From assembly GCA_030390025.1 (NCBI GenBank), contig CM059432.1, positions 43,712,001 through 43,776,000 of the forward strand: 64,000 nt of DNA, written 5' to 3'. This stretch comes from Squalus acanthias. Taxonomy: Eukaryota. Position 1 is the stretch's first letter, and each line of letters begins with the position of its first letter. A program made the translations under genes and the position numbers. Below, piece after piece: positions 44,852 to 58,249 of this stretch. Under the pieces are notes generated by a model. That model did no database searches, was not told the DNA's origin, and was given only the letters and a program-made list of their open reading frames with translations.

Positions 44852-45555
44852 GTGAGTACAGTTGCACATTCACCTACATCCTGCTGTGCGCATCAACCCA
44901 ACCCCTCACTCTGCCTTCTCAAGCCTACTCCATCACATCACTCCTCACACCCACTTACCTTGCAGGTGCACCCATCCCTCTCTGCCTATGCACTTCCTGA
45001 CATCCCCATCTATCCATCCACCACTCACCCTCATCCTTATGCAATTGAATGCTTTTCCTTCATAGTGACCCTCACCAAATGCATTCCATCCATCAGTTGG
45101 ACACATGCCATTACTGTTCACTTTTTGCTGCCCCCCCAATTGACAGCAACCAATGCAGGGATGTGAAAGGGATGTTTGGTTGTTTGAAGAACTGCTTTGT
45201 ATTAATGGCATTGAGGGAGGGGGCAAAACGAGGCTTTTGTATGTGGTTGTTAGATGGGTGCACTGGTGGAACCTAAGTAAACCTCGCAATAATCAGGGCA
45301 TCCTGGGCAGCAATGTGTGCAGCGGGTGGAGCATTGCCCTCAGCAACATCCTCCTCCATGTCTTCATCCTCCTCCTTGGAATCCTCCAAAGATGCTCTAT
45401 GCTCTGCGCCTTGGTCCTCCTGCATGTCCAAACATCGCTGCTGGGCAATGTTGTGCAGAACGTAGCATTCTGAAGACCCTTGCTGGTGTATACCGATGGG
45501 TGCCTCCAGATTTGTCCAGGCACCTGAAGCTCATTTTCAGCATGCTTATGGCTTG

Positions 45556-46459
45556 TGTAAGATTTTCAATATTTGCAGATCCCCAAAAACATATATCGAA
45601 AGGAAAAAAATAAGGACTTTGGAAATTTAAAGGAAACGTGCCTGGTCTGGGAATTCAAAGACCAGCAAAACATTACCATTTGGACAATAGGCTCTGGGGA
45701 AAATCTGCCCCACCCAAAACACAGAGCCCATAGGAATGCTAGGACCAGCAAGGAACCCAAAGCAGGAGAACAATGCAAGCTTCCATGGAACGACAATGCA
45801 ACAGGATGTAAGCCATTTGATTTGATTTAGCACAGTTGAAAGCCCATCAAAATTTCAACAAAGACAATGAACAGGCCTCACCTGAAACTCACTGCATTAC
45901 GAAACCAGTTTTCGTGTGGAGTTTTGGGGGGCGGGGGGAGGCGAAAAGGACTATAATTGCAGCAGGACCCAAGATTTCTCTCTCTTTTCGACTCGACCGA
46001 CTACGCTGGAAGCAAGGGTCTCTGGCAGCACTGCCCAGAAGCCACATGGTAAAGGAAGACGTTCGATGACCAGAATCACCATCTACTTACCTGGCTGGAT
46101 TTCGGATTTATAATACCCCTGTCTGGTGAGCATTATCCCTGATCTCCTGAAACCGAAACCTAGCTAAAAGTGGGATTTTTTTGGGAGGGATAAAGGTTTT
46201 TATTTTTCTTGTATACTGTAATTTTCCTCGCCTGTAACCGTGTGCTCCCCAAACCTGTTTAAGTGTGAAGTGTGTTTAAGTTTGTTACCTTTTAACTTTA
46301 ATAAAAGTTATAGTTCTTTCATTGGAACCTGTGGTCTACTGCATCTTTATTCACAACCCCTAAATAAGTCCAAGTTTTGAACCTGGGGCGTGGGAGCGAT
46401 TCGAACCGCTCACTGAGTCGGGGAAAGGCTGACTCTTATCACAACCCACACCCCTTACA
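45556..46459 (+). repeat. 5' LTR (904 bp)
   Basis: Direct repeat of 52039-52942; about 10 substitutions and 2 indels by eye; AATAAA at 46300-46305. Confidence 0.97.
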
Positions 46460-46461
46460 AA

Positions 46462-48261
46462 ATGGGGACCGTGGCAAGGACTTGGCAAAAGGGTTGTGAA
46501 GCAGTAGACACTGATTCAGAAGAGAGAACTGTAATGGAAGAGAGGATTTCAGATTATGTATTCAGCAAAGTGAATATGGAAAAGAAGTGGGTCACTAATC
46601 TATTAAAAACTGGGCGCCCGGTAGATGCAGCAGCTAAATGGACAGAAGGGAAGGATCATAAAAAATCCTTAGAAAAGGCAGTCTGGCTGATGTGCTTCAA
46701 GAAACAGATCCAACTTTTGGACAGACTCGTTGAAGCACAGGCAGCCGAGATTCGGGAGTCGGCCCTGGAAGTCCAAACAAAGGCCCTAGCAGGGGAGAAG
46801 TTACTGTTAGCATTGCAGGCGCTAAACCAGGAAAGGGGGCAGTTAGTGGGGGAACACAAGACCCAACAGGATTACTTACAGTGCCAGGTCACTGAGGCCA
46901 AGAACAATGAGCTGAGGTTGCGGGAAAAGAATGCCCGCCTGGCAAAACAAGTAAGAGAGCAGGAGGAGACAGTAAAAGGCTTACAGGCTGCCGAAAAGGT
47001 AATGAGCGCACAGGGGTTTGAGGGTGCGGACCACGGCCCCTGCCAGAAGCAGATAGAGAGTCTCAGCCTTGCTCTAAGGAAGGCAAGAGGCGTGGTGTGC
47101 CTCATAAGCCCAAGTGCAGCCCAGGTTGACTTTACAGGGAACCTGGGGAGAACGGTTCAGACACCAAAGATAGCGCCAAGGGACGACCCGGTTGAGGAGC
47201 GGGAGGGCCCACGACCACCACCCATAGCGCCAAGCTTTAGCGCAGTCTGGCAAGAAGAAGTGGTGGAGTTAGGGGCAGAAGCTGAGGTGGAAAAAACCCC
47301 GCAAGAGAGGCTGGGACCGGGGCCGATGTGCCCGGCCCGGCAGGACAGATTTGGCCCACCCGCTGATAACGGGGATGCGAGACCCCTCCAAAGCAAGTTC
47401 GTGGCTCCCCACGGTACACAACAGCTTAGGGTTATGGTAAGCCACCTGAGTAAACTCACCCAACAAGGGGACCCCTCAGTTCACTTCATAGAAATAGAAC
47501 AGGCAGCAAGCATTAACGGCTGTGACGATGCCGAGATGGCAAAAATGCTCCTGTTCTCACTGGACAGCCGGTTATATCAGTCTCTCTCTGCTGAGAGCAA
47601 GAGAGGACAGAATGGGTATGCGGCCATCACTGAGGAAGTTTTAGAGGCAATGGGGATGAATGAGGGAAGTCCTTTCTCCCGGGTGGAGAAAACAGTGCAG
47701 CTCGCAGGAGAGACCCCACAGGCTTTTGCAGACAGGCTGTGGCCCGTGTACAGGGGTGCTTGTGGTGGGGATCTTAACAGGGCTCACCTAAACCGGGACG
47801 AGCTGGCCCACTGGCTCCGTAGCCTAGTGGCAAACAGCTTGCCTCGGATCAAAACCCAGGCTGAGCTTTGGTTTGACCCGAAAGACCCCCGGGGCACTGA
47901 AGAGGCAGTGGTCAGACAGCTGAACCTGGCCTACCGGAACGGGAGAGGGGCGGAAGAGCCCCCACAGAAAGGGAAAGTACATGAAATAAAACCCGGCCAG
48001 AGTAGGAAGGAGTGGCATCAGGAGGGGAATAACCCTTCCAGCACAAAGCTTAACTGTTATGGGTGTGGGAAGGATGGTCACTGGAGGAAGGAGTGTAAGA
48101 ATCCTTGGAAGGATAACAAGGGAAAGAATTCCTCAGCCCCAGCCCAAAAGGCAGAGACAGGGATCCCTCCCGCCACGGTCGAGTCATTTTTGGACGCCAT
48201 GAGGTCCCTATTGACTGGCCCAGGGAAGGTAGCAGCAGCCCCATACAACCCAGACTTCTGA
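46462..48261 (+). CDS. gag: Gag polyprotein (coiled coil, capsid, CCHC zinc knuckle); start may be the ATG at 46534
   Basis: 599-aa intact ORF; MHR-like VQLAGETPQAFADRL; CYGCGKDGHWRKEC knuckle at 48055-48096. Confidence 0.92.
   Translation: MGTVARTWQKGCEAVDTDSEERTVMEERISDYVFSKVNMEKKWVTNLLKTGRPVDAAAKWTEGKDHKKSLEKAVWLMCFKKQIQLLDRLVEAQAAEIRESALEVQTKALAGEKLLLALQALNQERGQLVGEHKTQQDYLQCQVTEAKNNELRLREKNARLAKQVREQEETVKGLQAAEKVMSAQGFEGADHGPCQKQIESLSLALRKARGVVCLISPSAAQVDFTGNLGRTVQTPKIAPRDDPVEEREGPRPPPIAPSFSAVWQEEVVELGAEAEVEKTPQERLGPGPMCPARQDRFGPPADNGDARPLQSKFVAPHGTQQLRVMVSHLSKLTQQGDPSVHFIEIEQAASINGCDDAEMAKMLLFSLDSRLYQSLSAESKRGQNGYAAITEEVLEAMGMNEGSPFSRVEKTVQLAGETPQAFADRLWPVYRGACGGDLNRAHLNRDELAHWLRSLVANSLPRIKTQAELWFDPKDPRGTEEAVVRQLNLAYRNGRGAEEPPQKGKVHEIKPGQSRKEWHQEGNNPSSTKLNCYGCGKDGHWRKECKNPWKDNKGKNSSAPAQKAETGIPPATVESFLDAMRSLLTGPGKVAAAPYNPDF
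46463..46481 (+). promoter_or_regulatory. primer binding site, tRNA-Arg(UCG)-like
   Basis: TGGGGACCGTGGCAAGGAC, separated from the LTR end by 3 nt, versus the complement of the vertebrate tRNA-Arg-TCG 3' end TGGCGACCGCGGCAGGAC (recalled, imperfect match). Confidence 0.7.
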
Positions 48262-49370: not shown

Positions 49371-49392
49371 ATGCTCTTGTGTCTCCTTACAG
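49371..49392 (+). promoter_or_regulatory. putative env splice acceptor
   Basis: TGCTCTTGTGTCTCCTTACAG|A, 14 nt upstream of the signal-peptide ATG at 49407. Confidence 0.65.
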
Positions 49393-49406: not shown

Positions 49407-51773
49407 ATGAAGGGGGGCATACTCCTACTCGCTCTGATAGGAATGAGCGCTGGGAGGCGAGGTGACGTGGAGGACTCCCACATCTATGGGTGCTCAGGAG
49501 TGAGAGCACCAGTCGTCACCGCAGGGGGTGGCGAGCGGGGAGTGGAGGAGCTCGCCATCTACTTCCACGAGGGAAGGTGGCCAGGGTGGCTGGGGTCCAA
49601 CTCTACTAAATATTCCAACCAGCCCGGGTTCACGTACGGGGAGGCCTCCCTCCCATGCCCCAGAATACAGATCGTTGCCACAAGGGTCAGTGTCACCGAG
49701 GGGAAGCGTGTGTGCCTTATCTGTAAGGGACGAATTCCCCTAAATAGGTGGTGGTGGCTCAGGAAGCTGAGCAGGGACGCAGGGGACCATACAGCCGACT
49801 GGGAAAGATTAGGGAACGACACCCACCGGACAATCACAGGGACCCAAGGAGGAGTCAGTGTTTGTTGGGATAAGTGGTGGGAGTCGGAACAGGGAGTCTA
49901 TGTTTGTATGTGGGGATCAGAGGAAGCCTGCCCCACAGGGGTATCCATCATCTTCTCCAGCCAATGGCAGGATGCCGGGGAGGGGATAGGGTGGGATTCT
50001 AGCCTGCATGGGTGCGTGGTCCCACACATTCCGGTCCCAGTTAATGCCACTGAACTTGTGGCACACACCCGAAAGCCCCTACCCACGACCCAGGTACCGA
50101 AAACCCTGGAAGAAAAGTGCCCTACCACCACCAAGGGACCAGGGAATGGGTTAGTCCTAGTACCAATCGAAAAGGTACTATACCAGGGGGTACACTATGC
50201 AGTAGCTTCAGTAATATTAAACCTCACCGAGGTATACTTACCTGAGTGGTGTCCTAAGGAGACGGAGCAACTGTACCAGGCCCTGCTAAAGGAAATGTTT
50301 AGGAAATTTTACGAATTTGATTTTGCCAATATAGACAAAGTAGAGCTATACAGAATACACCCTGAGAACCCTATGGGCACGGGTAGACAAAGAAGGGGAG
50401 CCTGGAATGATGTCTTCACTGCCTATAGTACAGGGTCCTCTGTAATAAATAGCCTGGATGACATGGAATTACAGACACAGATAAATGGTTTAAAAACCCA
50501 GTTAAGAAAGATCCTGAAGGATGGGGACACAGTGGTAGGCTCAGAGCTACATGAGGACCAAGCTATGACGGTTCATTTAAAGGAAATTATTGCAGAATTG
50601 GAAAGGCATGCCAAAACAGTAAATGCACTCATACGGGAGGATAGAAATGCATCGGATCAGGCTGCACAGAATGAGGTGTGTGTGCTGTACGGGGCATGGT
50701 TGCTGGGCGAGGGCCGTAGCAACCTGGAGGATTTAAAGCAAGGTTTAGTCCCCTCCTGGATCAGCAACAAGCACCTCGCAGCCCTCCACCCATTTAGTAA
50801 TTCGCTGAGCCCATGCCAATTTCGTCTAGCCTCTGAAGCCTACCCTGTCCCAATAGATTGTGGACGTTCAAATCACACTATCATGGGGATAGTAGTGAGA
50901 ATGCCGGTCATGAGTGGGACAGCCCGACCCGTACCGGTATACAGGGTGGAGAACATTGGAGTCATTCAAGGGGGTGCACACATCCGTTTTACAGCGGTCC
51001 CACCTTATGTCATAAAGTGGGAGCACGCCATGACAGGTACTGACCTCTCCGGGTGCCGGAGCCGGGGTTCACACATAATACTGTGTCCCCAGCACTTGAA
51101 CGCCTATTCGAAACCACAGTGCGGGTTTAAAGCTGCTGGCGCACGACCTATCAATTGTACCATGGAGGTGATGGCACACGGCCATGTTTCCCCACAGGTA
51201 GCATATATAGGGGGTGGGACATATTGTGTCACCACAGGTGCGTCCCACTACCAGCATGGACACTTCTGGTGTCCGGTAAGTGACAGCAGTTTCTGCTTTA
51301 AACCCGAGGCAGAAGTTCAAGTGGCCCAGGAACGGATTGTCCCCATCCCTGAACCCTCCACTGTTCACCTCACTGTAACACAAAATTTCACCAACCTGCA
51401 AAAATATGTAGCACATTTTGGCTATGAAATTCCCCCTCTACCAGAACGCCTTACCAAGTTACTAAAAGCTGTAGAGCTCTCTCAAAAACATTTCTACACT
51501 TTAGAACAGAATACACACGAGATAGAGCGAGAGATTCAAGGTATCACAGTCCCACCCTGGTGGGACATCTTCGAAAACATAGAGGTCCCTTCATGGGTCA
51601 GAATGGCTTCCCACCTCCTCGTAGTTTGCCAACTGGGAATAGTATTGTACCTGGTGTGCACTCAGTGCAAGGGAAAGGGCAGAATACTACAGTTCCGAAA
51701 TGAAAGGACTTGGAGGAAGCATTATGCTGAGGTGAGATACACCTGTTTGAATTTTTTTATTCTGTGTTCCTGA
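49407..51773 (+). CDS. env: envelope glycoprotein, class I F-type fusion protein with putative N-terminal Ig-like domain (788 aa)
   Basis: Signal peptide MKGGILLLALIGMSAG; furin site RQRR (50385-50396); heptad repeats; Cys-rich beta region; Trp-rich juxtamembrane segment; TM ~51603-51659; several NxS/T sites. Confidence 0.9.
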   Translation: MKGGILLLALIGMSAGRRGDVEDSHIYGCSGVRAPVVTAGGGERGVEELAIYFHEGRWPGWLGSNSTKYSNQPGFTYGEASLPCPRIQIVATRVSVTEGKRVCLICKGRIPLNRWWWLRKLSRDAGDHTADWERLGNDTHRTITGTQGGVSVCWDKWWESEQGVYVCMWGSEEACPTGVSIIFSSQWQDAGEGIGWDSSLHGCVVPHIPVPVNATELVAHTRKPLPTTQVPKTLEEKCPTTTKGPGNGLVLVPIEKVLYQGVHYAVASVILNLTEVYLPEWCPKETEQLYQALLKEMFRKFYEFDFANIDKVELYRIHPENPMGTGRQRRGAWNDVFTAYSTGSSVINSLDDMELQTQINGLKTQLRKILKDGDTVVGSELHEDQAMTVHLKEIIAELERHAKTVNALIREDRNASDQAAQNEVCVLYGAWLLGEGRSNLEDLKQGLVPSWISNKHLAALHPFSNSLSPCQFRLASEAYPVPIDCGRSNHTIMGIVVRMPVMSGTARPVPVYRVENIGVIQGGAHIRFTAVPPYVIKWEHAMTGTDLSGCRSRGSHIILCPQHLNAYSKPQCGFKAAGARPINCTMEVMAHGHVSPQVAYIGGGTYCVTTGASHYQHGHFWCPVSDSSFCFKPEAEVQVAQERIVPIPEPSTVHLTVTQNFTNLQKYVAHFGYEIPPLPERLTKLLKAVELSQKHFYTLEQNTHEIEREIQGITVPPWWDIFENIEVPSWVRMASHLLVVCQLGIVLYLVCTQCKGKGRILQFRNERTWRKHYAEVRYTCLNFFILCS

Positions 51774-52029
51774 ATAAAGATTGTTGCTTTTTTGTGTTTT
51801 GTTCTTTTTAATAAAGATATGTGTTTTCCCAAGCAGTGCAGGGGTGTCGGACCCTCTCCGTGCTTGGTTGTGAAATAAAGATTTTCTTACCTGTATGTAC
51901 CTAAAACACCACATTTAAAGGGGAATGTATGTTTGGGGTTTTAGTTTAGGTAATACAGGGGAAGGTTGGTTTTCGGGGATCAGGAATTTTGTCCACCCAG
52001 GACGATACTGTAGTGAACTGAAGTATCGC

Positions 52030-52037
52030 AGGAGGGA
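52030..52037 (+). promoter_or_regulatory. polypurine tract
   Basis: AGGAGGGA, one base before the TG of the 3' LTR. Confidence 0.7.
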
Positions 52038-52038
52038 C

Positions 52039-52942
52039 TGTAAGATTTTCAATATTTGCAGATCCCCAAAAACATATATCGAAAGGAAAAAAGTAAGGAC
52101 TTTGGAAATTTAAAGGAAACGTGCCTGGTCTGGGAATTCAAAGACCAGCAAAACATTACCATTTGGACAATAGGCTCTGGGGAAAATCTGCCCCACCCAA
52201 AACACAGAGCCCATAGGAATGCTAGGACCAGCAAGGAACCCAAAGCAGGAGAACAATGCAAGCTTCCATGGAACGACAACGCAACAGGATGTAAGCCATT
52301 TGATTTGATTTAGCATAGTTGAAAGCCCATCAAAATTTCAACAAAGACAATGAACAGGCCTCACCTGAAACTCACTGCATTACGAAACCAGTTTTCGTGT
52401 GGAGTTTTGGGGGGCGGGGGGAGGCGAAAAGGACTATAATTGCTGCAGGACCCAAGATTTCTCTCTCTTTTCGACTCAACCGACTACGCTGGAAGCAAGG
52501 GTCTCTGGCAGCACTGCCCAGAAGCCACATGGTAAAGGAAGACGTTCGATGACCAGAATCACCATCGACTTACCTGGCTGGATTTCGGATTGTTAATACC
52601 CTGTCTGGTGAGCATTATCCCTGATCTCCTGAAACCGAAACCTAGCTAAAAGTGGGATTTTTTTGGGAGGGATAAAGGTTTTTATTTTTCTTGTATACTG
52701 TAATTTTCCTCGCCTGTAACCGTGTGCTCCCCAAACCTGCTTAAGTGTGAAGTGTGTTTAAGTTTGTTACCTTTTAACTTTAATAAAAGTTATAGTTCTT
52801 TCATTGGAACCTGTGGTCTACTGCATCTTTATTCACAACCCCTAAATAAGTCCAAGTTTTGAACCTGGGGCGTGGGAGCGATTTGAACCGCTCACTGAGT
52901 CAGGGGAAAGGCTGACTCTTATCACAACCCACACCCCTTACA
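52039..52942 (+). repeat. 3' LTR (904 bp)
   Basis: Direct repeat of 45556-46459; AATAAA at 52782-52787. Confidence 0.97.
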
Positions 52943-54454
52943 CTTGTTTGATGACACATCTAGTGGTGATATGACATTCATTGTAGCACTCCTGTACCTC
53001 ATTCCTCGGGTTTCTGAGAGGTGTCATCAGCCATGTTTTAAGTGGGTATCCCTTGTCTCCTAGCAGCCACCCGTTAACTCTGCTTCCAGATTGAAGACAT
53101 CAGGGAGGTTGGACTGCCGCAGGACTAAAGCATCATGGCAGCTCCCCAGGAATCTGGCGCACACCTGCATAAACATCTTTTTGTGGTTGCATACCAGCTG
53201 CACATTGATGGAGTGGAAGGCCTTGAGGTTGACGAACACTCCTGGGTGTTCTGGGGGTGCCCTGATTGCCACATGTGTGCAGTCGATGACACCCTGCACC
53301 TGTGGGAAGCCAGCCAGAGCCGCAAACCCAAGCGCCCGCTCATTCTGACTGGCATCATTGCAGGCAAAATTGACATCATTGCTGGCCCTGGCAAACAAGC
53401 CATCAGTCACCTGTCTTATACATTTGTGGGCGGCCAACTGGGAGATCTTGCAAATGTCTCCAGCAGAGCGCTGTAAGGAGCCAGAAGCAAAAAGGCTGAG
53501 GGCGGTGGTAACTCTGACAGCTAGGCCACTAGTTTCAGCTGGTGCTGCTGCTAGTCATCTTGGTCCTCATCTGAGGTCCAGTCTAAGGCAGCATAAGCGG
53601 CACCCATCCTGATCTGATAGATCAGCGCTCCAAATTGTAGATCAGACCTCCAAAGTGTAGAAATAAAGCACTGTGAATAAACTCTTTCCCACTAGCAAGT
53701 AAGAAAGCAGCTGTGAGTACTGAGTATTTATTGGCATATTTCCCTGAGATTGATTAAGCCTCCTCAATTGCCACTGTGCACTCGCCTTGCTTTCACTGGC
53801 GAGTTCCAGGAAGCCTGGGAAACCCATGGACGTGACATTAAGCACAAAAACATAGGTCAAAATCACTTTAATTGATCGATTTACATCTGATGATTGGCAA
53901 ACCCGCCTCTCCCGAGGGGGTTGCATGCACGCAGCCTAACGCGCTCCAGTCAAATACGGAAGTCGGCTTCTCGACGCGCTGACATTTTTGCCACTTTTAT
54001 CTCCCCACCCGCACCCAAACCCACGTGCTCTTCCATGGTCTCACAGAGAGATATCTGTAGAGGGCTGCTCTCAATGAGGCAGACCAGAATGTTATGAGGG
54101 AATGGCAAAATGGATTTTGTCTGTGTTGAATTTTTAAACTTGTATTCTGAAATGCTTAATTCAGCATATAAGTGGTTAACTCTCAAGGCAGTACACACTT
54201 TTTTAAATAGAAAAACAACAACCTGAACCAGTCTGTTTGTCTATTTGATTTCCCTCAAGGTGTAAGTTCTTTTAGGCTCACGCAATAATTATTTGAAGTG
54301 TTAATTAGTTAATCATCCCAGTAGTCGCCACTACTTAGAATTCTAAACATCTTGTGGCATTGTTAGCAATGGTTCCATTGTCCCTCAGGAGTACCATTGT
54401 GACATCTGGTTGGTTGAGATGTTGTTTTATTTAATCCATACAGCATGGGGCTAT

Positions 54455-55748: not shown

Positions 55749-56104
55749 AGTTACAATGAGTGAATCTACAAAAGTTCACAGAATATAAACACAGAAACTG
55801 CAGAGATACAATCTTTCAGGGAAGGTGTCCTTACATCAAAGACACACCAAGAGCACAGCCAAGACAATGAGATGTGTCCCAGGGGGTCCAATGTGTCAAA
55901 TCCTGCTGTCTGCAGTGTTTTTTTGGGGGGGTTTGTTTTTTGTGTTTGTTTTTTTTGTGTTTGTTTTTTAAAAACTGGAAAGACAGACAACGATGTCAAG
56001 TCACGTTCTGTAGCGTGACATGAAACTGATATCCCTATTGAGGCCGTCCTCGTGAGTGCGGAACTTGGCTATCAGTTTCTGCTCGATGATTTTGCGTTGT
56101 CAAA

Positions 56105-58249
56105 ATGGACCCCATCGGTCTCGCGGCAGACACAGAGGAATTCATCAGGAGAATGAGGATCCGGGAATACTACCACAAATCCCAAGATGTCAGCAACAAA
56201 CCCAATGAGACAATCAATGATCCGGAACAGCAGACAGAGGGAACCGCAGTGCAGCAACCGAAGAAGAAAGAGTCAAATTGGACCCCTCCGGAGGGTCGCT
56301 GCCCTAAGCTTGACATGTATGCTCAAGCTGTCAGGAAATGCATCAACGCCAGATTCATCAGCCGCACTCACAAGACAGTCCAGAATGTCACCCGAGCACA
56401 ACGCAACGCCATCCACGCTCTCAAGACCAACCGCAACATCGTCATCAAACCAGCGGACAAAGGAGGAGCCATCGTCATACAGAACAGAATGGACTATTGC
56501 AAAGAAGCATACCGACAACTGGACAACCAGGAACACTACAGACAGCTACCCGCAGATCCGACCAAAGAACACACCCGCCAACTCAATAGACTGATCAAGA
56601 CCTTCGATCCAGACCTTCAAAACATCCTACGCGCTCTCATCCCACGTACTCCCCGCGTAGGAGACTTTTACTGCCTCCCAAAGATACACAAAGCCAACAC
56701 ACCCGGACGTCCTATCGTATCAGGCAACGGAACCCTGTGTGAGAACCTCTCTGGGTACGTCGAGGGCATCCTGAAACCCATCATACAGGGAACCCCCAGC
56801 TTCTGTCGCGACACTACAGACTTCTTGCAGAAACTCAGCACCCATGGACCAGTTGAACCAGGAACACTCCTTGCCACGATGGACGTATCAGCACTCTACA
56901 CAAATATCCCCCACGATGACGGCATCGCTGCGACAGCCTCAGTACTCAACACCAACAACAGCCAATCTCCAGACGCCATCCTACAACTCATCCGCTTCAT
57001 CCTTGACCACAATGTCTTCACCTTCGACAACCAGTTTTTTACCCAAACACACGGAACAGCCATGGGGACCAAATTCGCACCCCAATACGCCAACATCTTC
57101 ATGCACAAGTTCGAGCAAGACTTCTTCGCTGCACAGGACCTCCAACCAACGCTGTACACCAGATACATCGACGACATCTTCTTCCTTTGGACCCACGGCG
57201 AAGGATCACTGAAAGGACTACACGATAGCATCAACAGGTTCCATCCCACCATCAAACTCACCATGGACTACTCCTCAGAATCGTTTTCATTCTTGGACAC
57301 ACGAATCTCCATCAAAGACGGACGCCTCAGCACTTCACTCTACCGCAAGCCCACGGACAACCTCACGATGCTCCACTTCTCCAGCTTCCACCCTAACCAC
57401 GTTAAAGAAGCCATCCCCTATGGACAAGCCCTGCGAATACACAGGATCTGCTCAGACGAGGAGGAACGCGATGGACACCTACGGACACTGAAAGACGCCC
57501 TCGTAAGAACGGGATATGACGCTCGACTCATCGATCGACAGTTCCGATGGGCCACAGCGAAAAACCGCATAGACCTCCTCAGAAGGCGAACACGGGACAC
57601 AACCAACAGAGTACCCTACGTCGTCCAGTACTTCCCTGGAGCGGAGAAACTACGCCATGTTCTTCGCAGCCTTCAACATGTCATCGATGACGATGAACAC
57701 CTTGCTAAGGCCATCCCCACGCCTCCACTACTCGCCTTCAAGCAGCCGCCTAACCTCAGAAGTACCATCGTTCGCAGCAAATTACCCAGCTGTCAGGAGA
57801 ACAGCGACCACGACACCACACAACCCTGCCACGGCAACCTCTGCAAGACATGCCAGATCATGAACACAGATACCGTCATCACACGTGAGGACACTACCCA
57901 CCAGGTACATGGTACATACTCATGTGACTCGGCCAACGTTGTCTACCTGATACGTTGCAGGAAAGGATGCCCCAGAGCATGGTACATCGGCGAGACCATG
58001 CAGACACTGAGACAACGTATGAACGGACACCGTGCAACAATCGCCAGGCAGGATTGTTGCCTCCCAGTCGGGGAACACTTCAGCAGTCAAGGGCATTCAG
58101 CCTCGGATCTGCGGGTTAGCGTTCTCCAAGGCGGCCTTCGAGACACACGACAACGCAAAATCATCGAGCAGAAACTGACAGCCAATTTCCGCACTCATGA
58201 GGACGGCCTCAATAGGGATATCGGGTTCATGTCACGCTACAGAACGTGA
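56105..58249 (+). CDS. Penelope RT + GIY-YIG endonuclease polyprotein (714 aa, probably N-terminally truncated)
   Basis: IKPADKG, LPKIHK, GRPIVS, DVSALYTNIP, GTAMG, YIDDIF; Cys linker PCHGNLCKTC; VYLIRC...YIGET...RMNGH. Confidence 0.93.
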   Translation: MDPIGLAADTEEFIRRMRIREYYHKSQDVSNKPNETINDPEQQTEGTAVQQPKKKESNWTPPEGRCPKLDMYAQAVRKCINARFISRTHKTVQNVTRAQRNAIHALKTNRNIVIKPADKGGAIVIQNRMDYCKEAYRQLDNQEHYRQLPADPTKEHTRQLNRLIKTFDPDLQNILRALIPRTPRVGDFYCLPKIHKANTPGRPIVSGNGTLCENLSGYVEGILKPIIQGTPSFCRDTTDFLQKLSTHGPVEPGTLLATMDVSALYTNIPHDDGIAATASVLNTNNSQSPDAILQLIRFILDHNVFTFDNQFFTQTHGTAMGTKFAPQYANIFMHKFEQDFFAAQDLQPTLYTRYIDDIFFLWTHGEGSLKGLHDSINRFHPTIKLTMDYSSESFSFLDTRISIKDGRLSTSLYRKPTDNLTMLHFSSFHPNHVKEAIPYGQALRIHRICSDEEERDGHLRTLKDALVRTGYDARLIDRQFRWATAKNRIDLLRRRTRDTTNRVPYVVQYFPGAEKLRHVLRSLQHVIDDDEHLAKAIPTPPLLAFKQPPNLRSTIVRSKLPSCQENSDHDTTQPCHGNLCKTCQIMNTDTVITREDTTHQVHGTYSCDSANVVYLIRCRKGCPRAWYIGETMQTLRQRMNGHRATIARQDCCLPVGEHFSSQGHSASDLRVSVLQGGLRDTRQRKIIEQKLTANFRTHEDGLNRDIGFMSRYRT

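Follow-up and report, generated by a model that had tools for sequence, protein, structure and literature searches.

A young pol-less endogenous retrovirus of Squalus acanthias carries an open env predicted to encode a class Ib fusogen

Introduction

What kind of fusion protein is encoded by the open env gene of an endogenous retrovirus (ERV) in the genome of Squalus acanthias, and does it serve a virus or the host? The gene lies in a stretch of 64,000 nucleotides (nt), here called the window (GenBank assembly GCA_030390025.1, contig CM059432.1, positions 43,712,001 to 43,776,000, forward strand), within a 7,387-nt provirus of the order LTR-gag-ORF2-env-LTR (LTR, long terminal repeat; ORF, open reading frame). 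An initial annotation, made from the letters alone, had described the product as a fusogen of the paramyxovirus, pneumovirus and baculovirus F type rather than a retroviral surface/transmembrane protein, and as a candidate for syncytin-like co-option. Our analyses indicate, with a probability of roughly 0.85, that this open env belongs to a young copy, lacking pol, in a many-copy ERV family, and that its product, predicted to be a class Ib (F-type) fusogen, likely served virus entry and not a host function.

Results and Discussion

The Env protein is predicted to adopt an F-type fold

The env reading frame is open throughout, in line with the intact gene that had been claimed, and has the following layout (aa, amino acids; HR, heptad repeat; TM, transmembrane).

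49407..51773, + strand: env, one open frame of 788 codons plus stop (788 aa)
49407..49454, + strand: predicted signal peptide, aa 1-16, judged by a hydrophobic core of mean Kyte-Doolittle hydropathy 2.39
49659..49907, + strand: likely Ig-like domain, candidate receptor-binding head, aa 85-167, with C103, W115-117 and YxC167
50112..50384, + strand: F2-like segment, aa 236-326, strands pairing into beta domains and then a helix (strands at model residues 14-24 and 27-37, helix at 49-71)
50385..50396, + strand: putative furin-type cleavage site RQRR, aa 327-330
50397..50735, + strand: putative fusion peptide and long HR1/central helices, aa 331-443
50835..51340, + strand: Cys-rich beta domains, about aa 477-644, model confidence (pLDDT) mostly 83-97
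51438..51665, + strand: HR2 (aa 678-712), WW motif and TM helix (about aa 733-753)

All seven motifs quoted in the initial annotation were found in the frame: GPGNGLVL starts at aa 244, GAWNDVFTAYSTGSSVINSL at aa 331, LKQGLVPSWIS at aa 443, VRMPV at aa 497, VYRVENIGV at aa 511, DLSGCRSRGSHIILCP at aa 546 and WW at aa 718. As it had stated, RQRR precedes the midpoint (42% along the protein), leaving an anchored subunit of 458 aa, and the gamma-type hallmark CX6CC does not occur in Env. The Cys-rich block holds seven cysteines (550, 560, 572, 584, 607, 622 and 630), the heptad a/d positions of HR1 and HR2 are 63-80% hydrophobic, and a single hydrophobic segment lies near the C terminus, at about aa 733-753. 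Six cysteine/landmark positions are invariant in 10 aligned relatives from sharks and frogs with 18-77% identity; because of this invariance and a significant fold search, the pattern is not attributable to chance.

We modelled Env aa 236-756 with AlphaFold2 from a 34-row alignment (pLDDT 73.4, pTM 0.54). From its N terminus onward, the model has two strands, a set of long helices downstream of the cleavage site, the Cys region, rich in beta structure, and then HR2 and TM. When it was searched with Foldseek, a check the initial annotation had itself proposed, the best match in the PDB was hPIV3 F (E 1.6e-10, query TM-score, TMq, 0.39), and all 44 rows listed were paramyxovirus or pneumovirus F proteins. 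In BFVD, the matches included baculovirus F (1.4e-10), WEHV-1 Env (3.5e-10), WDSV Env (1.4e-7) and feline foamy Env (5.1e-4), the best E-values belonging to arthropod-virus and baculovirus glycoproteins. The best 12 of the 48,161 chains searched with VIA were 10 F chains and 2 foamy Env chains (Z 11.2-7.5; root-mean-square deviation, rmsd, 5.6-26.5 over 274-369 residues), with matches that begin at model residues 3-10, i.e., within the F2-like segment, and end at residues 414-521; the next row was a plain helix at Z 6.8. A single VIA Z near 8 is modest, and the weight rests on the agreement among rows. The top Atlas clusters were Gypsy/Baculo_F at 0.94-0.95, but with a low recognition score.

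The class Ib fusogen is defined in PMC11468914. In the predicted model, both subunits contribute to the three-domain beta-rich core of that class, and the Env has its order of basic cleavage site, fusion peptide, HR1, HR2 and TM. Predicted model, Foldseek and VIA thus bear out the F-type fold that had been proposed. The best structural matches were paramyxovirus and pneumovirus F proteins (hPIV3 1ZTM, NDV 3MAW, RSV, hMPV), with which the Env shares the succession of F2-like segment, furin site, fusion peptide, HR1, Cys-rich beta region, HR2 and TM. Unlike them, it is extended at the N terminus by about 220 residues that include a likely Ig-like domain, its fusion peptide is much less hydrophobic, and it comes from an element without a separate attachment protein; identity is only 9-16%.

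The closest named sequence relatives are retroviral

By sequence, the Env leads back to retroviruses. In a search of the PDB with the sequence profile of the Env, foamy Env made up the top three rows (E 0.0012-0.023), and the only rows below E 0.05 were foamy Env, not F. By profile, the Cys-rich beta domains match foamy Env 660-821; by structure, they match F proteins. We then compared the family profile by hhalign with 18 of 32 viral loci, of which 17 had an env-size frame and whose group names were assigned by tree position and env features. The SnRV Env (L051:6131-9535, a locus whose reverse transcriptase (RT) matches the SnRV row in an RT scan of the viral contigs) scored 91.5% and a walleye-type Env (L077) 90.6%, both aligning over 190-290 columns; Env aa 331-443 align to the same region of the SnRV Env. 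Four of seven foamy Envs scored 49-62%, and all eight gamma/delta-type Envs at most 4.3%. With its 458-aa subunit and no CX6CC, the Env is not a gamma-type (class Ia) Env. The phrase "rather than a retroviral SU/TM" was nonetheless too strong, because the closest named sequence relatives, the SnRV, walleye-type epsilonretroviral and foamy Envs, are retroviral Envs.

Several observations weigh against the reading of the Env as a retroviral class Ib fusogen. The cleavage and fusion-peptide region of the model has pLDDT below 50, and the fusion-peptide-like stretch shows only weak hydrophobicity (mean Kyte-Doolittle 0.25). Because the monomer model mixes conformations, its global TM-scores (TMq 0.24-0.43) are low and its rmsd values high. 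Searches with the single Env sequence returned no viral-fusion family, in Pfam or by sequence in the PDB. Three of the seven foamy Envs scored just 3.6-7.6% in hhalign, and pairwise BLASTP against the SnRV Env was weak (19%, E 0.033).

The foamy Env (PDB 8RM0/8RM1/8OZH; PMC11468914) has the F-type core in common with the window Env (VIA Z 8.3, rmsd 5.8, 274 residues aligned; profile E 0.0012). It differs by an N-terminal membrane-anchored leader peptide and an inserted receptor-binding domain, whereas the extra domain of the window Env is N-terminal; moreover, the window element lacks accessory genes, and the RT of its family falls outside the foamy clade. The walleye epsilonretrovirus Envs (WEHV-1 and WDSV) also lack CX6CC and were recovered by Foldseek, but are 1160-1320 aa long and accompany a class I Pol.

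The nearest relatives of the Env, at 62-81% identity, are in Pristiophorus, Scyliorhinus and Rhinoraja; remoter ones are in Chiloscyllium, Mustelus, Heterodontus, Heptranchias and frogs. A cluster in the frog Mantella (P0037) comprises at least 15 near-identical Envs of the family, 12 of them of 677 aa, and represents another young burst. In three database gene models (P0002, P0003 and P0029), pieces of the Env family are fused to host genes, among them Niban1-like, cadherin-related 5-like and fbxo15; these fusions could be annotation artefacts or exonisation.

An Ig-like domain probably heads the Env

The sole Pfam signal in the single-Env search was a weak Ig_3 match at aa 85-167 (E 0.004, 18 bits), which argues less firmly for the domain in that it stays below the Pfam cut-off of 30. 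The relative P0051 carries a similar match (E 0.0027), and Atlas Ig clusters match the N-terminal part of the Env at 0.88-0.90. A single-sequence model of the N-terminal 231 aa was unusable (pLDDT 37). Judged from the sequence, an Ig-like domain likely heads the Env, and PMC11468914 describes the F scaffold as able to accept a receptor-binding module at its N terminus. Neither this domain nor the lack of pol in the provirus figured in the initial annotation.

Sister copies place the family among canonical retroviruses

No pol lies between the LTRs of the window provirus, and the family was placed by the RTs of its pol-bearing sisters. Our first tree held 24 of 54 Pol matches, SnRV and two rows of this genome; our second held 10 of 32 viral loci and 13 Pol matches. 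The sister RTs fell inside canonical retroviruses and outside the loki, foamy and gamma/epsilon clades (support 97/95 in the first tree and 99/97 in the second), and the approximately unbiased (AU) test on the first tree rejected a joint clade with the loki rows (p 0.022). The loki rows (P0058-P0060) had been assigned by eye against dataset S3 of PMC7947760. Foamy rows formed a 100/100 clade without the window-family RT, which places the family outside Spumaretrovirinae.

By BLASTP of the RT, SnRV-like rows scored 202-235 bits, versus 158-186 for foamy, 168-175 for gamma and 169-184 for loki rows, with a class I-side row (P0065) at 220 bits, within the SnRV-like range. A point against placing the family beside SnRV is that the SnRV-like rows form no supported clade, the order in which the family, SnRV, a coelacanth row and the cyprinid-type rows branch being weakly determined. 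We therefore use "SnRV-like" as the closest label for the family and not as the name of a demonstrated clade. SnRV-like ERVs are known from the elephant shark (PMC4422223), and the clade Huo spans all vertebrate lineages (PMC6001957).

Measured against SnRV and the SnRV-like/Huo ERVs, including CmiERV lineage I (RT 219 bits, 43%; PMC12193657, PMC4422223, PMC6001957), the family shares a common reading frame for gag and pol with a stop codon between them, a CCHC Gag with a coiled coil, a TGGCGA.C-type primer site of Arg type, and a long, non-gamma, post-cleavage Env subunit that is homologous by profile. It departs from SnRV in that the window gag stop is TGA (TAG in SnRV), gag starts inside the primer-binding site (PBS) and not about 250 nt downstream, and Env has its own hydrophobic leader (the signal peptide), in place of the spliced leader of SnRV Env, and a much shorter N-terminal part, with 788 versus about 1130 aa. 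Nor is there room for a 3'ORF as in the complex genome of SnRV, since only 265 nt separate the env stop from the 3' LTR; the window copy further lacks pol. The Gag could not be aligned to SnRV Gag beyond the knuckle. SnRV's own primer site is of the Arg type.

Two other assignments were tried and rejected. An errantivirus (Ty3/Gypsy with env) was rejected when the Gypsy rows formed a 100/100 outgroup. ERV4, described with a 5-bp target-site duplication (TSD) and no Gag zinc finger (PMC4299795), was rejected on the 4-bp TSD and the CCHC knuckle found here.

The provirus is young and lacks pol

The provirus has TG...CA ends and a 4-bp TSD; siblings L036 and L041 have 4-bp duplications too. Its parts outside env are as follows.

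45552..45555, + strand: left 4-bp TSD (right copy 52943-52946)
45556..46459, + strand: 5' LTR (TG...CA), with a TATA-like element at 45952, a candidate splice donor near 46126 and AATAAA at 46300
46462..48261, + strand: gag, 599 aa, with an N-terminal coiled coil, one CCHC knuckle and a TGA stop in TGA-CTG context
46463..46481, + strand: PBS for tRNA-Arg(TCG), overlapping the gag start codon
48262..49020, + strand: ORF2, 252 aa, in frame after the gag stop, at the pol position of sister copies
49374..49392, + strand: candidate splice acceptor (pyrimidine tract plus CAG), 14 nt upstream of the env ATG
52029..52038, + strand: short polypurine tract
52039..52942, + strand: 3' LTR

The two LTRs differ by 10 substitutions and 2 indels in 903 columns (Kimura two-parameter distance 0.0112, or 1.1%), which corresponds to 2.5 million years at the mammalian rate and to 25 million years at the ten-fold slower rate assumed in PMC4422223. 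The zf-CCHC match of Gag (E 0.0026) is below the curated cut-off. ORF2 joins a Gag-like coiled-coil piece (43% identical to residues 146-217 of its own Gag) to a pol tail, and contains no protease, RT, RNase H or integrase core. Its first 114 codons have a dN/dS of 0.37 (p 0.015, 4 pairs), and a Gag-ORF2 readthrough product may therefore have been selected. The candidate splice acceptor is present in 9 of 20 fetched copies. A joint between LTR and env was not found in four contig sets of uncertain kind covering the family at 88% or more, a result that is uninformative either way.

The PBS of the window copy has a mismatch absent from its siblings, and on its own gave no tRNA match; the sibling sites resolved the primer. 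The tRNA 3' end complementary to the sibling PBS had 422 matches genome-wide (control 0), and ARAGORN called both loci with the PBS complement as tRNA-Arg(tcg). Long tandem arrays of units that contain tRNA-Arg(TCG), with a period of about 1623 nt, occupy 39.0-42.2 Mb of contig C26. In nearly all copies shown, the gag ATG overlaps the first PBS bases, 2-4 nt past the LTR.

Pol-less copies are many, and their env dN/dS lies mostly below 1

Copy counts in this 3.7-Gb genome are floors. All 80 scored env candidates were 88-100% identical, so that there are at least 80 copies, of which 12 of the 80 scored, the window copy included, keep a stop-free frame of about 800 aa; most are broken. Among the 20 fetched copies, 8 are pol-less of the window type, 6 have a second pol-less form, 5 have inserts of pol length, and the remaining copy has a larger deletion. 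The three Pols tested each comprise protease, RT, tether, RNase H and integrase. The pol-less junction had 40 of 40 scored matches at 97-100%, and RT 150 of 150 at 90% or more. Since the pol-less layout is common to many near-identical copies, pol loss preceded amplification.

For pol-less subfamily A, env dN/dS was 0.34-0.35 (4 disjoint pairs, p 1e-11); it was 0.26 for pol-less subfamily B, 0.19 for one pol-bearing pair and 0.10-0.19 between lineages. The simplest reading of values around 0.3 in pol-less copies is spread by helper-assisted reinfection with Env in use. Some results pull the other way: private env changes give 0.48 with 5 stops, as expected if decay after insertion overlays earlier selection, and the pair of the window copy and L036 gives 0.8-1.3. 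Copies can also owe a low dN/dS to their source elements, or acquire it through recombination with helpers, and dS may be inflated by CpG mutation. A precedent for pol loss is BHIKHARI, which also lacks env (10.1101/2024.03.25.586437).

Subfamily B has a pol-less form of its own, in which short stretches of pol are joined in frame into a mosaic of about 400 aa. Env swapping between lineages is apparent when L040-L050 are compared with the window copy: subfamily B is 72-73% identical to it in gag but 94-95% in env, whereas L041 and L042 are 96-97% identical in gag and 87% in env.

Origin and role of the window env

Three other explanations were weighed. A recent capture of the F-type env, independent of other retroviruses, from a mononegavirus, baculovirus or errantivirus would fit the top BFVD E-values, the Gypsy/Baculo_F clusters at the top in Atlas (with their low recognition score) and the exchange of env between lineages in this genome, but we consider it very unlikely: sequence-level relatives of the Env extend across sharks, a skate and frogs, the profile search of the PDB drew foamy Env and no F below E 0.05, and the SnRV and walleye-type Envs align over long stretches. 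That the element is the first lokiretrovirus of a cartilaginous fish, with an Env already known to be F-like, was our first reading. Lokiretroviruses are LTR elements of aquatic vertebrates with dual RNase H and an F-like Env with an RxKR site (PMC7947760, PMC9040795), and the window family resembles them in its tether and RNase H, its F-like Env with RxRR and its coiled-coil Gag; identity to loki-type Pols is 33-34% across tether, RNase H and integrase, and Loki-Xtr Env, the single loki Env compared, has similar landmarks by eye. By RT, lokiretroviruses are sister to canonical retroviruses, and their integrase is close to CGIN1/NYNRIN. Dual RNase H is, however, common to all retroviruses, and Loki-Xtr Env lacks a long N-terminal head, its sequence starting with the F2-like strand. 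We dropped this reading on the RT motifs, which by eye are LPQG-type and SnRV-like and not the loki CPFG...NSP.EFNIFL, on the split from the loki rows in both trees and on the AU test. Loki elements are unreported in chondrichthyans, Wang and Han having found them in 0 of 6 genomes (PMC7947760). The lokiretrovirus explanation is thus largely refuted and very unlikely.

Finally, the host may have co-opted the window env as a syncytin-like fusogen or a receptor-blocking gene. Signal peptide, furin site and TM are all present in the open frame, which is among the few stop-free ones scored, and its private changes number only 2 synonymous and 3 non-synonymous, with no stop. Yet five changes are too few to show selection, and nothing singles out env, because gag is open as well; 11 other scored copies are equally open. 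The end of the Env tail is frameshifted relative to three sibling copies, the primer site is mismatched, the insertion is young by its LTR divergence, and the flanks are decayed transposase. A single old locus whose env has outlasted its provirus is not what we find here. Syncytins, which are captured gamma-type Envs, likewise have an open env frame in a host genome, but the window Env belongs to another fusogen subclass and is young, multicopy and inside a whole provirus. The suggested syncytin-like co-option, for one of at least 80 copies, is therefore very unlikely, and the window locus itself is an ordinary young copy. Elsewhere in the genome, a distant relative (L058:1189-3543 on contig C4; 28% to the window Env) has an open 784-aa env behind a frameshifted pol, in a family whose other matches nearly all carry stops; on its sequence it is a better candidate for host co-option.

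We thus favor a class Ib fusogen for virus entry, which may work as follows. A spliced mRNA, from the LTR donor to the acceptor at 49392, would give a precursor with a signal peptide, which furin would cut after RQRR. The N-terminal subunit would consist of the likely Ig-like head, putatively receptor-binding, and of the F2-like segment kept in the beta core. Once the protein is triggered, the stretch that follows RQRR would enter the target membrane, and HR1 would form an extended trimeric coiled coil, against which HR2 would fold back, by analogy with paramyxovirus F and foamy Env. The pol-less subfamily would borrow protease, RT and integrase from pol-bearing sisters, with Gag and Env under selection.

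F-type Envs and the origin of retroviral Env

F-type Envs have been published for foamy viruses (PMC11468914) and lokiretroviruses (PMC7947760), and F-like Envs for errantiviruses (10.1101/2023.10.26.564294), while PMC11468914 lists orthoretrovirus Env as class Ia. Viro3D expects further retroviral F-type cases and, in the accessible part, names neither SnRV-like nor walleye Envs. We found no statement of an F-type SnRV-like or walleye Env in a literature search outside subscription journals and bioRxiv supplements, nor in the accessible parts of 10.1101/2024.03.17.585361, PMC13709493, PMC4977317 and PMC11089739. The predicted occurrence of an F-type fold in a lineage of canonical retroviruses other than foamy viruses, and by profile in SnRV and walleye viruses too, bears on the origin of retroviral Env. 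Because the F type is common to loki, foamy, SnRV with its shark and frog relatives, and walleye epsilonretroviruses, the class Ia Env of HIV/MLV type may be a later replacement of an F-type Env ancestral to retroviruses, with the shark F core gaining an Ig head and pol-less genomes spreading with helpers. We put forward this scenario tentatively, at somewhat less than even odds, and PMC9040795 prefers, to the contrary, one of independent origins. The family also provides a compact model in two respects: its F core bears a candidate receptor-binding head of its own, and its pol-less ERVs retain an env under selection.

Neighboring elements in the window

The provirus was inserted in a decayed transposase.

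53063..53554, - strand: decayed Harbinger-type transposase flank (Pfam DDE_Tnp_4, E 2.7e-11)

We take this transposase to continue left of the 5' LTR, at about 45200-45555 on the minus strand, on the basis of a motif in the translation. Further downstream, positions 56090-58249 hold an open frame of 714 aa that encodes an RT and has a tail resembling GIY-YIG. It is surrounded by inverted and direct repeats and presumably Penelope-like; a 99% identical copy lies 25 kb upstream, in the 31338 region.

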